This document shows, one piece after another, positions 3,381 to 36,083 of a stretch of 38,842 bases of DNA. The notes beneath the pieces were generated by a model. That model was not told the DNA's origin. It worked only from the letters and a program-made list of their open reading frames with translations, and did not search any database. Both the position numbers and the translations under genes were made by a program. Position 1 is the first letter of the stretch. Each line of letters begins with the position of its first letter. This DNA comes from an uncultured Gammaproteobacteria bacterium (GTDB lineage: Bacteria; Patescibacteriota; Patescibacteriia; VMEV01; CAYQCH01). The stretch is taken from positions 68,962-107,803 of the forward strand of contig CAZDCG010000001.1 of assembly GCA_964503955.1 (NCBI GenBank). Reading direction: 5' to 3'.

Positions 3381-4171
3381 ACAAAAAAGATCAGCAATAC
3401 GATTGCCAGAAGAATGCGGTAGACTCCGAAGAAGTAAAGCCCGCGCTTTGAAATGAGTTTTAAGAGCAAATGAATGGCGGCTAGCCCGCTTAAAAATGCG
3501 AGCAGCAAGGCAGCTGCCAAATCAATCGATCCCATTCCCCCCGGCTGCTGAAAGAAATCCAGGAGGCTGAACAAACCGGCACCGGCAATAACAGGAATTC
3601 CCATCAGAAAGGAGAAGCGCACGGCCTCTTCTCTTGACAAGCCTGAAAATAATCCGCTTGAGATGGTGATTCCAGAGCGGGATGTTCCCGGAATCAAGGC
3701 CAGCGCCTGAGCAGCACCAATGAACAGCGCTCTTTTCCAGGTGAGCTGCTCCATCTTTAACTCAGTTTGGCGGTGCTGAGCCGTATATTCGGCAATCATC
3801 AGAATAATCCCCCAGATAAGCAGATTGACAGCGACAATCAGCACCCCCCGGACCTGTTCTTCAATAAACGTTTTCAGCGTAAGCCCCGCAATCACCGCCG
3901 GAATAGCGGAAAGCAGGAGCAATGCCACCAGTTTGCGGTGCGCTTTCGATTCAGGGTCAAAGAGGCTTGCGATCAACGAGCGAAGATCACGGTGGAAATA
4001 GACGAGAACCGCCAGCAAGGTACCAAGGTGAATCGCCGCGTCGAAGTTCAACCCCTGGTCCGCCCAACCGAAAAAACGCGGTAAAAGAAGCAGATGCCCG
4101 GAACTGGATATGGGCAAAAATTCCGTCAATCCCTGGACAATGCTAAGGACCATGAGTTGGATCATCGGCAT
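3377..4171 (-). CDS. uppP: Undecaprenyl-diphosphate phosphatase
   Basis: QGLTEFLPISSSGHL and ALIPGTSRSG motifs, multiple TM helices. Confidence 0.96.
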   Translation of the reverse strand: MPMIQLMVLSIVQGLTEFLPISSSGHLLLLPRFFGWADQGLNFDAAIHLGTLLAVLVYFHRDLRSLIASLFDPESKAHRKLVALLLLSAIPAVIAGLTLKTFIEEQVRGVLIVAVNLLIWGIILMIAEYTAQHRQTELKMEQLTWKRALFIGAAQALALIPGTSRSGITISSGLFSGLSREEAVRFSFLMGIPVIAGAGLFSLLDFFQQPGGMGSIDLAAALLLAFLSGLAAIHLLLKLISKRGLYFFGVYRILLAIVLLIFFV

Positions 4172-32853: not shown

Positions 32854-33672
32854 TTATGCCTTAACGGTTTCTTTCTTCTTGGCAGGAGTCTTCTTTGCCG
32901 CAGGTTTCTTTTCAGCGGTTTTCTTGGCCGCAGCTTTCTTCTTTGGCTTCTCTTCGGCGGGTTTTACAACCTTTGCCGCCACGACTTTGCGGTTGTTCAA
33001 ACCTTCTTTTACCGCTTCGGTCAATACGCCCATCAAAAGGTCAATCCCCTTGGTGGCATCGTCATTTGCGGGGATCATATGCTTCACCCCGCGTGGGTTC
33101 ACGTTTGTGTCACAGAAAGCAAATACAGGCACATGCACGACATTTGCCTCCTGCAAAGCGGTTTTTTCGGTGCGGATATCCACAATAACAATCGCCTGAG
33201 GCAATTTTTCAAGCGTGACAAGACCTGAAACGAAAGTAGCAAGTTTTTCAACTTCTTTCTGCAGAAGCACCTGCTCTTTTTTGGTGTATTTTGCCCACTG
33301 GCCGGCTTCCCGCTGTTTGAGCAAATCAATATATCGGCGGATCGTCTTTTTTACTTCGCCAAAGTTCGTAAGCAAACCGCCGATCCAGCGGCCGCGCACA
33401 TACGGCATGCCGACTTCGGTCGCGTACTTCTCAACAATCGGCTGCGCCTGTGACTTTGTTCCGACGAACAGAACGGTTCCTCCGTCGGCAACGATTTTCT
33501 GCAAATGCTGCGCTGCTTCTTCAAGCTTTTGCGCGGTCTTTTTTACGTCGATGATGTGACGGCCATTTTTTGCTGTGTAGATGTATGGCGCCATCTTAGG
33601 ATGCCAGCGAGACGACTGGTGGCCAAAATGCACACCCGCTCGGAGCAACTCCTCCATGCTAGGGATCTTCAT
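32854..33672 (-). CDS. rpsB: 30S ribosomal protein S2
   Basis: AGVHFGHQSSRWHPKM, RWIGGLLTNF, DTNVNP, IPANDDA; Lys/Ala-rich tail. Confidence 0.98.
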   Translation of the reverse strand: MKIPSMEELLRAGVHFGHQSSRWHPKMAPYIYTAKNGRHIIDVKKTAQKLEEAAQHLQKIVADGGTVLFVGTKSQAQPIVEKYATEVGMPYVRGRWIGGLLTNFGEVKKTIRRYIDLLKQREAGQWAKYTKKEQVLLQKEVEKLATFVSGLVTLEKLPQAIVIVDIRTEKTALQEANVVHVPVFAFCDTNVNPRGVKHMIPANDDATKGIDLLMGVLTEAVKEGLNNRKVVAAKVVKPAEEKPKKKAAAKKTAEKKPAAKKTPAKKKETVKA

Positions 33673-33686
33673 ACCCTTTTTTCACC

Positions 33687-33847
33687 TACGGCTCGCGCTG
33701 TGGGACCTTAAGGCGTTTCTAAAATGGCTTTAAGGCAGGACCGGCAGCGAATCAAGAACCGTATGTTTTTTAATGAGTTAACAAAAGCCAGTGCCAGTTA
33801 CGGCATTGGCGTGCAAGAACTATACGGGAAAACGCCTTTTTCCGCAA
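33687..33847 (-). promoter_or_regulatory. rpsB promoter and structured 5' leader (candidate S2 autoregulatory element)
   Basis: TTGCGG-17-TATAGT (33847-33819); long irregular leader hairpin 33763-33687 (TACGGTTC/GAGCCGTA, CGCTG/CAGCG, CCTTAA/TTAAGG). Confidence 0.55.
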
Positions 33848-33855
33848 GGAGTATA

Positions 33856-33884
33856 TTGACAAAATAGGTAAAAAATGCTAGAAA
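33856..33884 (+). promoter_or_regulatory. Promoter for the GC-rich insert, back-to-back with the rpsB promoter
   Basis: TTGACA-17-TAGAAA with extended TG; last -10 position is non-consensus. Confidence 0.6.
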
Positions 33885-33889
33885 TAGAC

Positions 33890-34089
33890 GATGCCGTCTT
33901 ATCAGTTCCCATAAACGGGGGCGGGACGTCATCTGTTCGAACCGAAAGGGGCATGCGGTGTTCTTCCTGAAAGGACGAATACCCAACTGATGTTGGGCTT
34001 TCGTCACCGCACAACTGAATCTCTCATGACTTCCGGTCACTGAGAGTCCTCCAAGGAGTGCGGTGACACCGCATTCCAAGGAGATTCTC
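33890..34089 (+). ncRNA. Candidate structured cis-regulatory 5' leader RNA (family not recognised)
   Basis: Multiple helices: TGCGGTG/CACCGCA, GACGAA..CCCAAC-TGAT-GTTGGG..TTCGTC, CTCTCA-TGAC/GTCA-TGAGAG, GGAGTGCGGT/ACCGCATTCC; ends at SD AAGGAG. Confidence 0.55.
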
Positions 34090-35241
34090 ATGGCCGACTT
34101 CATCACCCGTCGCATCAGCGCCCTGGTCAACCGCGTCAACAGCGCCATCCAGGGCCGCGGCCAGAACGAGAGGAAGGTGTCCGATGACCTGATCAACGCG
34201 GCCGCCCGCCTCGTGGAGCGGGCCAAGGCCGCCTTCACCCCGCTCGAGTCCAACGGCTGGGACATCGAGCAGAGCATCTACCAGCAGCCGATCGAGGTCT
34301 CGCACGAGGACCTCAACCAGTCCGAGCCCGCTCCCGTTCAGGAGCTGGTGATCGAGGCCACGGTCCCCGTTCTGGAGACCGCGCTCGAGCCGCCGGCTGA
34401 CGAGATCGAGGAGGAGGAGCCGATCGCTGAGACCGAGGACTCCGAGCACGACGAGGGGGTCTGCGAGATCACGACCGTGGTCATGCAGGCCCACTGCGTC
34501 CAGCGCAGCACGTTCCGCTGCGGGATGTGCGGCAGCACGCACTTCGGTGCCGACATGGTCGGCGCCAGGGTGAACGCGTTCGCCGCGATACCCAACGACG
34601 AGATGATCATCGCCAAGAGCGTGTGCAAGCACTGCTGCGACAGCGATGACTGGGGATGGCTCGCCGGCGTGATCAAGTACGCCGGCCACGCGCGCGCGAA
34701 CAAGCTCGAGCGCTGCGTGAAGCTCATGGAGTCCGCGCTCTTCGGAGACCCCGAGAAGAGCGACGCCTGCCGCATGCGGTACCTGGCCAACAACGACCAG
34801 CCCGCGCGCGCCCACAAGGCTCTCGAGATCCTCGAGCGCCTCACCGAGAACTGCAGCTCGCAGCCGACCGTCGAGAAGGACGAGCGGATCCGGCAGCTGC
34901 GGAACAAGGCGGAGCTCTGGGCCACCGAGCAGGAGGCCCAGCGGCTGGCGGGCAAGATCCGGCACCGGATCGAAGCGGGGAACTTCAAGCGCGCGTACAA
35001 CACGCTCAACGAGGCGCGCAAGCAGTTCCCCAAGCAGACCAAGTCCTGGGACAAGCTGGAGTCCGAACTCAAGGACGCCCAGTCCAGGACCGAGCAGGAG
35101 GAGATCATCGCCGACCTCCGCTCGAGGATCGCCAAGGCGGCCAGCAATGACGACACCGAGACGCTCGTCGCGCTGATCGCTCACGGAAGCAAGATCGCTC
35201 CCCATCTCGACTGGGAGCAGATCGCGCTCCAGGCCATGTAG
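34090..35241 (+). CDS. Orphan GC-rich protein: acidic linker, CxxC..CxxC Zn-binding region, helical/TPR-like C-terminus
   Basis: AAGGAG SD 6 nt before ATG 34090; 19 of the first 20 codons after ATG end in G/C; RCGMCGSTHF..VCKHCC. Confidence 0.85.
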   Translation: MADFITRRISALVNRVNSAIQGRGQNERKVSDDLINAAARLVERAKAAFTPLESNGWDIEQSIYQQPIEVSHEDLNQSEPAPVQELVIEATVPVLETALEPPADEIEEEEPIAETEDSEHDEGVCEITTVVMQAHCVQRSTFRCGMCGSTHFGADMVGARVNAFAAIPNDEMIIAKSVCKHCCDSDDWGWLAGVIKYAGHARANKLERCVKLMESALFGDPEKSDACRMRYLANNDQPARAHKALEILERLTENCSSQPTVEKDERIRQLRNKAELWATEQEAQRLAGKIRHRIEAGNFKRAYNTLNEARKQFPKQTKSWDKLESELKDAQSRTEQEEIIADLRSRIAKAASNDDTETLVALIAHGSKIAPHLDWEQIALQAM

Positions 35242-35344
35242 GGTTCAGCTCGCGAGGGCTGTTCCCGCTCCTGGAGATCGTCACCACCGACGGTCTCCAG
35301 GACGAAAATATTTTCATAACTATTTGTGAACATATTTTCGTTCC
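35241..35344 (+). other. Three consecutive hairpins after the orphan gene
   Basis: GGG..CAGCTC-GCGA-GGGCTG..CCC; CTGGAGATCGTC-6-GACGGTCTCCAG (35271-35300); ACGAAAATAT/ATATTTTCGT (35302-35311/35332-35341) with inner TTCATAA/TTGTGAA. Confidence 0.7.
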
Positions 35345-35381: not shown

Positions 35382-36083
35382 TTGACCAAGAAGCCCATGT
35401 TGTTCGGCGCCAGCCTGGCAATCCTTGCCTTGGCTGTCTACTTCGCCATTCAACACAGCAGCCGGGCGACCACGGCCAACGTGGTTCCCCCTACCCCCAA
35501 CCAGCCGAAGGAAGCGCCAGCGACATCTGCTCGCCCCGTCTACACGCAAGACGAGATGAGGGCATTCCTGGGCAATGTGCTCATGCCGTTGCTTCACTCG
35601 GCCAGGCAGGAGTATCCGGTCGTTTCGGTGCGAGAGTCCATGGAAGGGCTCATGGCCAGGATTGAGCGGCACGAAATTCTCCTGGTGATCCAACCGGTCT
35701 ACATGGGCGGAGGGCTGGCGCGCTCAGGAATGTCGCAGGATGGCAGGCCGATGCTTGAGATCATCCTTCCCGCGGCTATGCAGTTCCACGAGGAAACCGG
35801 GCGCGATACCGAGAGCTTCCAGGATGAGATGATCGCGACGGTGCTGCATGAGCAGTATCACATCGATCATCACTTCAAAGCTCCCCTTCCCGCGACACAA
35901 GCCGAATCGGAAGCATGGGCGTATACGATTCGCGAGGTCTACCTGCCGATGTCCAAAGCCGGCCGCCTCAAGCAGGTCGACAGTACGGCAGGTGCGGGTA
36001 TCCTCTCCTATCACGCTTGCGGCGGTGATACGAATCACCGGGCATGGCAGGCGTTTATCGGGACAGTCACGTCCCCCTACTAA
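35382..36083 (+). CDS. Membrane-anchored putative zinc metalloprotease (HEXXH)
   Basis: GGAG SD plus TTG start, N-terminal TM, Pro-rich linker, ATVLHEQYHIDH and downstream AESEAW. Confidence 0.7.
   Translation: MTKKPMLFGASLAILALAVYFAIQHSSRATTANVVPPTPNQPKEAPATSARPVYTQDEMRAFLGNVLMPLLHSARQEYPVVSVRESMEGLMARIERHEILLVIQPVYMGGGLARSGMSQDGRPMLEIILPAAMQFHEETGRDTESFQDEMIATVLHEQYHIDHHFKAPLPATQAESEAWAYTIREVYLPMSKAGRLKQVDSTAGAGILSYHACGGDTNHRAWQAFIGTVTSPY

Follow-up and report, generated by a model that had tools for sequence, protein, structure and literature searches.

A candidate two-state leader RNA with mutually exclusive helices over the ribosome-binding site of an orphan gene

The leaders of ermC, cat-86 and cmlA act by attenuation at the level of translation. 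Each contains a short leader open reading frame (ORF) with its own accessible Shine-Dalgarno (SD) sequence and four complementary segments, which pair either as 1:2 and 3:4 or as 2:3. By default, segment 4 is sequestered together with the SD and the start codon of the downstream gene; segment 1 overlaps the leader ORF, the position of the ribosome decides which fold is adopted, and no terminator is involved. In RNA phages, a ribosome site is closed by pairing as well (MS2 coat-to-replicase; maturation-gene leader) and is opened only by upstream translation or before the final fold has formed. SD-sequestering riboswitches possess mutually exclusive helices over the SD and the start codon, and their alternative state is a multi-helix junction. 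The hok/mok type I toxin mRNAs are long, very stable and inactive, their ribosome site is occluded, and the main frame is translated only by way of an upstream frame that overlaps it. Here, we describe a leader RNA that shares features with all of these systems. It precedes the gene of a 383-amino-acid (aa) orphan protein (gene 1) and is located in a stretch of 38,842 nucleotides (nt) from an uncultured bacterium (positions 68,962 to 107,803 of contig CAZDCG010000001.1), which is referred to as the window. Positions are those of the window unless noted otherwise.

We assign a probability of roughly 60% to the reading that this leader is a conserved two-state translational control element that sequesters the ribosome-binding site (RBS). 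It shares with ermC, cat-86 and cmlA the four segments with their default pairing, the overlap of segment 1 with a short SD-led upstream ORF (uORF), which is presumably translated, and the lack of a terminator. In contrast to these leaders, the downstream gene is not a resistance gene and no inducer is known; the leader peptides comprise only 4-10 residues, are not conserved and lack a known stalling motif. Additional elements are a helix 1:4 and a second, overlapping uORF in three of the leaders studied, and a decoy of the start region in two of them. Unlike the situation in RNA phages, the uORFs are tiny, unconserved and located in the 5' leader of a chromosomal cassette; viral contigs and a phage collection contained no relative, and there is thus no sign of a phage origin. 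Unlike SD-sequestering riboswitches, the leader displays no conserved ligand-pocket nucleotide and belongs to no Rfam family, and two of its hairpins (a and b) lie in an SD-led uORF. Finally, it resembles hok/mok in its stability and in the occluded ribosome site, and translation of the main frame would likewise depend on an overlapping upstream frame; in contrast to hok/mok, no antisense RNA or processing signal was identified, and the product is a soluble-looking protein of 383 aa and not a small membrane toxin.

The comparison covered six leaders, which represent about four independent lineages: that of the window (W) and those of five homologous genes (L003, L004, L005, L006 and L008). In a word-indexed protein database the 383-aa protein matched itself alone, and the word-indexed searches taken together gave itself and one homologue. 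A full HMMER scan yielded four distant homologues and a genome scan the fifth (identity 31-37%). Metagenome scans with a protein profile and with a DNA pattern of the leader returned nothing, and the leader is single-copy in all DNA searched. All six loci contain the same package, which consists of a promoter, a structured leader of 200-250 nt, an upstream SD-like motif with a uORF, a GUGCGG-type hairpin and a base-paired start codon. We propose that the region is the 5' leader of the gene 1 mRNA and that promoter, leader and gene form a self-contained cassette. The annotated starts are preceded by an SD at 5-8 nt and give rise to conserved N-termini (MADFI, MAKFI, MAYFN, MINFI, MTCFN). An N-terminal extension from the in-frame GUG at 34063 was rejected, as that frame is not conserved in L003 and L004 and both N-terminus and SD are conserved at the annotated start.

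Folding of the stretch 33885-34100 resulted in a minimum free energy (MFE) of -92.5 kcal/mol, compared to -66.3 +/- 4.5 kcal/mol for 200 dinucleotide shuffles (z = -5.9), none of which was as good. The ensemble consists of three modules, namely the 5'-terminal stem-loop P1, the module H2 and the long hairpin H3 (Table 1). A first-pass annotation of this DNA, made from the sequence alone, had described a TTGACA promoter, a leader of about 200 nt and a set of mutually exclusive helices over the RBS. When the sequence was re-read, promoter, leader and all listed helices were found where they had been placed: TGCGGTG (33954-60) pairs with CACCGCA (34005-11), CCCAAC (33982-87) with GTTGGG (33992-97), CTCTCA (34021-26) with TGAGAG (34041-46), and TGCGGT (34059-64) with ACCGCA (34068-73). 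The assignment of the CTCTCA/TGAGAG hairpin to the first of the proposed folds (Fold A) has to be revised, because it is part of the alternative open fold described below. The dominant fold is the single hairpin H3, which had escaped notice. Its energy is -42.5 kcal/mol (3' 90 nt of W), and opening of the RBS costs 12.1 kcal/mol. A further proposed pairing (Fold C), GAATCTC (34017-23) with GAGATTC (34081-87), is present in the window and is not conserved; L005 contains GAACCAG there. Likewise, TCCAAGGAG is indeed duplicated at 34050 and 34075, and this duplication is a by-product of the nested pairing of CUCC:GGAG plus GGAG:UUCC. Leaders controlled by CsrA/RsmA carry several A(N)GGA motifs in hairpin loops, and one of these overlaps the SD. 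In the present leader, AAGGA(G/A) recurs (34053 and 34078, with further copies in L004 and L008), and the predicted folds place these motifs in stems rather than in loops.

The closed state recurs in the homologues. The GUGCGG-type hairpin formed by segments 3 and 4 abuts the main SD in 6/6 leaders, with wobble-compatible changes, and the top helix of H3 displays a compensation of A-U by G-C in L006. The pairing of SD and anti-SD covaries (GGAG:CUCC in W, GGAA:UUCC in L004). In none of the six leaders does the MFE fold of the 3' 90 nt leave the start codon entirely unpaired: all three bases are paired in W, L005, L003 and L006, and only U and G in L004 and L008. The costs for opening the RBS are 8-20 kcal/mol in all six; SD and start codon are strongly sequestered in W, L005, L003 and L006 and weakly in L004 and L008. 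Helix 1:2 comprises 7/7 base pairs in W and L005, 9/10 in L004, 7/8 in L008 and 6/6 in L006; it is not evident in L003. At the level of primary sequence, the leaders have diverged: for most pairs the identity of the whole leader is at the background of the alignment; it is 75% for W/L005 and 70% for L004/L008. The assumption that the leader is more conserved than the coding sequence was not upheld for the whole leader (75% versus 72% nucleotide identity for W versus L005); only its 3' 62 nt reach 89% in this comparison.

The best-supported alternative helix had already been listed in the first-pass annotation as Fold B (34003-11 with 34059-67). It is the pairing of segment 2 with segment 3, in which GTCACCGCA(C) (34003-12) and (G)TGCGGTGAC (34058-67) match perfectly. 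Segment 2 lies 27-51 nt upstream of segment 3 and is complementary to it. The 2:3 duplex is better than shuffles in five of the six leaders: of 500 shuffled sequences each, 1 reached the native value for W, 2 for L005, 1 for L003, 0 for L004 and 15 for L008; for L006 the duplex is not significant. A double compensation (C-G versus U-A) distinguishes GCCACAC/GUGUGGC of L004 from GCUGCAC/GUGCGGC of L008, and from W. If pairing 2:3 is enforced, W, L005 and L003 fold into a four-way junction of helix 1:4, hairpin a, hairpin b and helix 2:3, and every strand of H3 except the ribosome site gains another partner. For the 1:4 duplex, the native value was reached by 1 of 500 shuffles for W, 0 for L005 and 32 for L003, and segment 4 invariably has its best upstream partner in the ribosome site of the uORF. 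The helix is absent in L004, L008 and L006, which fit only a simpler 1:2 / 2:3 / 3:4 scheme or mainly the closed fold.

Substitutions in segment 4 are especially informative. Between W and L003 they are C to U, A to G and U to C, which maintains wobble pairing with the unchanged segment 3; segment 1 has changed correspondingly, which results in three double compensations in helix 1:4. Hairpin a contains two double compensations between W and L005 (U-A to C-G, C-G to G-C) despite its location in a uORF and has an equivalent in L003. The equivalents of hairpin b, CCCAAAC/GUUUGGG in L005 and CCAGGGU/ACCCUGG in L003, likewise hold the stop codon of the uORF in their loops. The decoy is AACCAGUGAUC in L005, with a GUG as in the main start of this leader; the duplex of decoy and anti-RBS strand amounts to -12.6 kcal/mol in W and -11.2 kcal/mol in L005. 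The first-pass annotation had suggested a search for covariation among homologues, and covariation is present. Its occurrence in helices of both folds is the signature that would be expected if both conformations were selected.

The energy of the open fold exceeds that of the closed fold by 5.8 kcal/mol in W, 0.3 in L005, 0.7 in L003, 4.1 in L004, 10.7 in L008 and 17.9 in L006. Opening of the RBS is 8-11 kcal/mol cheaper with the native upstream sequence than with shuffled upstream sequence in W, L005 and L003 (0/60 shuffles each). An RNA thermometer was considered, since SD and AUG reside in a hairpin with bulges and G-U pairs whose melting could expose the SD. However, H3, at about -42 kcal/mol, is not of marginal stability, and in W, L005 and L003 the gap between open and closed fold remains constant between 10 and 55 °C. 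On these grounds a thermometer of the ROSE or fourU type was rejected; it is extremely improbable. A transcription attenuator was ruled out as well, because no U-run follows H2 or H3.

The same data bear on the possibility that the leader is simply a constitutive structure, in which a stabilizing 5' hairpin and a hairpin that occludes the ribosome site set a fixed low level of translation or restrict it to RNA still being transcribed. One inverted repeat, present in two copies, makes up the four segments, and alternative pairings would automatically arise from it as by-products. Moreover, the closed fold dominates W at equilibrium (pairing probability about 1), masking of the uORF leaves the site shut, and L006 and L008 have no competitive open fold. 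Such a by-product would, however, not account for compensatory changes that are specific to the alternative helices (2:3 in L004 versus L008, 1:4 in L003), for a reduction of the opening cost by upstream sequence far beyond that of shuffles, or for the nearly isoenergetic folds of L005 and L003. We therefore judge a purely constitutive leader to be unlikely.

Table 1. Positions of the elements of the window leader and of the gene it precedes
Feature	Position	Strand	Description
Cassette promoter	33856..33884	+	TTGACA 33856-61, 17-nt spacer, TG 33876-77 (extended -10), TAGAAA 33879-84
P1	33887..33937	+	5'-terminal stem-loop; high pairing probability
Upstream SD-like motif GAAAGGGG	33944..33951	+	GAAAGGRG, GAGAGGAG or GAAAGAAGG in all six leaders
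Segment 1 GGCAUGCGGUGU	33950..33961	+	spacer and start of uORF1; partner is segment 2 (closed) or segment 4 (open)
H2	33954..34011	+	UGCGGUG/CACCGCA stem enclosing hairpins a and b
uORF1	33958..33990	+	GUG start, ten sense codons (MFFLKGRIPN), UGA; stop overlaps an AUG (UGAUG)
Hairpin a, GUUCUU/AAGGAC	33960..33976	+	within uORF1; common to both folds
Hairpin b, CCCAAC/GUUGGG	33982..33997	+	uORF1 stop codon in the loop
Candidate uORF2	33989..34041	+	AUG start, 17 codons, UGA; its start overlaps the uORF1 stop and its end lies 7 nt 5' of the anti-SD
Segment 2 GUCACCGCAC	34003..34012	+	partner is segment 1 (closed) or segment 3 (open)
Start-region decoy CUCUCAUGACU	34021..34031	+	pairs with the anti-RBS strand in the open fold
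H3, closed-state hairpin	34034..34096	+	SD and AUG paired, probability about 1
H3: anti-RBS strand	34034-52	+	includes anti-SD CCUCC 34048-52
H3: segment 3 GGAGUGCGGU	34055-64	+	followed by loop 34065-67
H3: segment 4 ACCGCAUUCC	34068-77	+	followed by SD AAGGAG 34078-83, spacer, AUG 34090-92 and first codons
Gene 1, 383-aa orphan protein (putatively regulated)	34090..35241	+	GC 66%; G+C at third codon positions (GC3) 0.95

An SD-led uORF of 4-10 codons with AUG or GUG as start is found at the same place in 6/6 leaders and is significant in four of them. An SD-like motif with a start codon about 6 nt downstream occurs more often than expected from shuffles (3/300 for W, 1/300 for L005, 0/300 for L003 and 1/300 for L004), where the scoring assumed a canonical anti-SD that may not be that of the host. 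In the relative present in run X8, the GUG frame is conserved and the AUG at 33953 is not. Among the ordinary genes of the window a plausible SD precedes only about 2-3 of 31, and both genes of the island that is headed by the leader (34090, 35382) possess a GGAG with a 6-nt spacing. It is therefore unlikely that the two SDs of the leader are background. The layout of the candidate uORF2 recurs despite insertions and deletions: in L005 it starts at a UAAUG and stops 6 nt before the anti-SD, in L003 it starts at a GUGA and stops 5 nt before it. With a ribosome parked on the uORF2 stop codon, W, L005 and L003 all have the open four-way junction as their computed MFE structure.

These findings can be combined into the following model. 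In the closed state, segment 1 would be paired with segment 2, and H3, composed of 3:4 and of the anti-RBS strand paired with the RBS, would bury SD and AUG. In the open state, helices 1:4 and 2:3 would join hairpins a and b in the four-way junction; the upstream decoy of W and L005 would additionally capture the anti-RBS strand. The real ribosome site alone would lack a dedicated partner. The exposed upstream SD (GAAAGGRG) may load ribosomes on the short uORF whose ribosome site is segment 1, and in W, L005 and L003 a second, overlapping uORF would end just before the anti-SD. Upstream translation might thus unzip H3 and allow the RNA to re-pair into the open state, following the logic of attenuation in ermC/cat leaders and of coupling in phages such as MS2. 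Ribosomes on the uORF are the likeliest of the triggers considered; taken on its own, this is a tentative part of the model, with the odds somewhat against it. We infer from the sequence that the uORFs are translated, in which direction this affects gene 1 and which signal is read, be it ribosome traffic or stalling. In its most elaborate version, the leader would be a cassette-autonomous switch in which a strong upstream SD and a relay of two tiny, overlapping uORFs use the helicase activity of the ribosome to flip the hairpin into a "memory" state, the four-way junction; we regard this version as rather unlikely.

The first-pass annotation had classified the element as riboswitch-like and as matching no known family. 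No known family could indeed be identified: Rfam at gathering thresholds gave 0 matches across the whole window, and permissive settings for 33600-34300 gave only chance-level matches (E 1.1-9.6; 12-20 bits compared to cut-offs of 45-100). If the four-way junction of 1:4, a, b and 2:3 were an aptamer for a metabolite or an ion that stabilizes the open or the closed state, the element would represent a new riboswitch class. Two nearly isoenergetic folds over the ribosome site would suit this explanation, as would the compact multi-helix junction that is conserved among W, L005 and L003, and given the Cys4 zinc ribbon of the downstream protein, a metal signal is conceivable. Yet the upstream SD is the sole unpaired motif conserved across the six leaders, a small sample; the loops of a and b and the junction residues differ. 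Besides, the junction has almost no unpaired residues that could line a pocket, hairpins a and b lie inside a uORF, and L004, L008 and L006 lack helix 1:4. As only the upstream SD and no loop or junction nucleotide is conserved, a ribosome-driven attenuator or coupling relay is indicated rather than a metabolite riboswitch, which we consider quite improbable. What stands of the earlier classification is a translational switch with mutually exclusive helices over the RBS in a cis-acting leader; the attribute riboswitch-like, in the sense of ligand sensing, does not.

Several observations weigh against the two-state reading or against its trigger. The set of leaders is too small for statistics of the grade of R-scape, and helix alignments and helix tables were made by hand, since hairpin b and segment 2 came out misaligned with MAFFT. 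The two folds are close in energy only in W, L005 and L003, and in L008 and L006 the open fold lies 11-18 kcal/mol higher; the effect of upstream sequence on the opening cost was not seen in L004, L006 and L008. H3 is no more stable than chance in L004 and L008, and the counterpart of the decoy in L003 is negligible (CUGUG/CACGUAG, -1.9 kcal/mol). With respect to the trigger, the uORF peptides are unrelated (MFFLKGRIPN, MLFNKRRPNY, MNSMELPGL, MFRPSLD, MTWT, MTWSSCGCCS), so that no stalling motif can be named, and the pattern of uORF2 was recognized post hoc. If a ribosome occupies the uORF2 stop, the opening cost decreases in W alone (from 12.1 to 5.6 kcal/mol; L005 10.9, L003 9.3). Masking of uORF1 in equilibrium folding makes opening slightly cheaper in W, L004, L008 and L006 and more expensive in L005 and L003; the simple notion that a ribosome on uORF1 opens the site at equilibrium is not supported by this result. 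Furthermore, run X8, which is labelled RNA and covers the leader of a 92-94% relative in parts, does so only 2-5x and may contain DNA. A simple consensus promoter scan did not call the cassette promoter, because its -10 element lacks the final T.

The leader sits between rpsB (32854-33672, minus strand) and the plus-strand ORF that starts with the ATG at 34090. It heads an island of 2 kb with 60-66% GC in a window of 48-52% GC. The transcription start is predicted at about 33891. In all six loci, a promoter with the layout TTGAC(A/T/G)-N17-TAnnn(T/A) is located upstream of the gene, with a TGn extended -10 in 5/6, and the distance from promoter to start codon is 234-287 nt. A hairpin homologous to P1 is present in L005 and in a relative that lacks gene 1 (see below), and the other family members have different 5' hairpins. 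P1 is outside the switch and probably stabilizes the transcript. The leaders in a neighbouring GC-rich islet comprise only about 35-45 nt; the long leader is therefore specific to the 383-aa gene and not general to GC-rich cassettes. A scan for tRNA and tmRNA found none. The promoters of rpsB and of the cassette are divergent and have the spacer 33673-33855 in common. On the minus strand, these 183 nt constitute the upstream region of rpsB, which matched neither a known S2 (rpsB) leader nor any Rfam family.

The protein encoded by gene 1 begins with a helix and an acidic disordered spacer; a zinc ribbon (CxxC...CxxC) with GWLAG follows, and the C-terminus is a helical repeat. No Pfam family scored above cut-off, and there was no match to a resistance family. 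The AlphaFold model has a mean confidence score (pLDDT) of 74 overall and of more than 90 for much of residues 140-383; a fold search in the PDB with this model gave no match with E <= 0.001 and only weak TPR-like matches. As an alternative to a translational switch, the first-pass annotation had suggested an RNA partner of the downstream Zn-binding protein. Zinc ribbons often bind nucleic acid, and autoregulation would be economical: the protein could bind the GUGCGG/CCGCAC hairpin region and lock the closed (or the open) fold. Leader and gene always occur together across unrelated hosts, and segment 3 (GUGCGG) is nearly invariant, beyond the needs of pairing. On the other hand, neither homology nor fold points to an RNA-binding protein, the invariance of segment 3 is sufficiently explained by its two alternative partners, and the conservation of an SD-led uORF would be left unexplained. 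Autoregulation is thus an improbable explanation.

The contigs of the homologues carry unrelated neighbours (argS and a gene with a VTC domain; a UPRTase gene; a gene with an EVE domain; greA), and no conserved partner gene lies beside the family in the six loci. A close relative of the window's strain is contained in X6, a solid-waste metagenome run. It differs at 11 positions over 33455-33880 and has kept the promoter and a diverged P1; in place of 33881-35287 there are only 78 nt, and the join at 35288 reuses a short CCC microhomology. The 78-nt remnant (...GAACTGAAAGGAATACCC...) resembles the interior of the leader, from which it follows that gene 1 and most of its leader were lost together. 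This presence/absence polymorphism argues that gene 1 is dispensable.

Gene 1 differs in codon usage from its neighbours in the window (GC3 of 0.95 versus 0.48-0.59). The GC3 values of the homologues are 0.82-0.91, and those of flanking host genes are as low as 0.24-0.38 (L008, L004 and, in L003, the VTC gene). The gene family thus keeps G/C-ending codons (GC3 0.82-0.95) regardless of the host (genes at 34090-35241 in the window, 2890-4053 in L003, 347-1579 in L004, 397-1395 in L006 and 784-1911 in L008). The homologue in L005 (3001-4060) is frameshifted near 3560, which results in 244 aa and a remainder in another frame, and its leader is intact; it is either a pseudogene or an error of the assembly, whose coverage is 1.2x. 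For L009 (3105-4286) and L010 (2623-3804), the public gene calls list a 393-aa antisense ORF (window 34024-35205, minus strand) and not gene 1. These calls are probably an artefact of a stop-poor, GC3-rich frame, and the homologues belong to the plus-strand gene. The L008 contig (CAYGRO010000007.1) is labelled "uncultured Gammaproteobacteria"; the locus has 33-38% GC, no SDs and small genes typical of reduced genomes, and the label may be a binning or naming error.

Downstream of gene 1 (35269-35341) lie a 14-bp hairpin TCCTGGAGATCGTC/GACGGTCTCCAGGA without a T-run and then, directly before the second gene of the island, an AT-rich palindrome of 18 nt, ACGAAAATATTTTCATAA/TTGTGAACATATTTTCGT, which may serve as an operator or represent an unusual terminator. 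This second gene (35382-36083) encodes 233 aa if read from the TTG at 35382 or 228 aa from the ATG at 35397. A search among 5.8 billion proteins returned no homologue of this orphan, which contains an HExxH-like motif, HEQYH.

The immediate impact of these findings is limited by the unassigned function of the protein in question. If confirmed, the leader would be a new family of cis-regulatory RNA from the little-explored bacteria of the candidate phyla radiation, in which, to our knowledge, very few RNA regulators are known. Moreover, both conformations of the switch are supported by comparative data, which would make it an unusually clean example from nature. The finding relates to a wider oddity of these genomes, namely cassettes composed almost entirely of G/C-ending codons that carry their own consensus promoter and SD among genes using neither. 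If the leader were a cassette-autonomous switch, it would provide this one family of mobile genes with regulated, SD-dependent translation in Patescibacteria-like hosts, whose own genes dispense with an SD for initiation; the switch would move together with its gene and work independently of host factors. Control of SD-dependent initiation by such a leader would offer a tractable experimental handle on how, and at what time, these cassettes are expressed.

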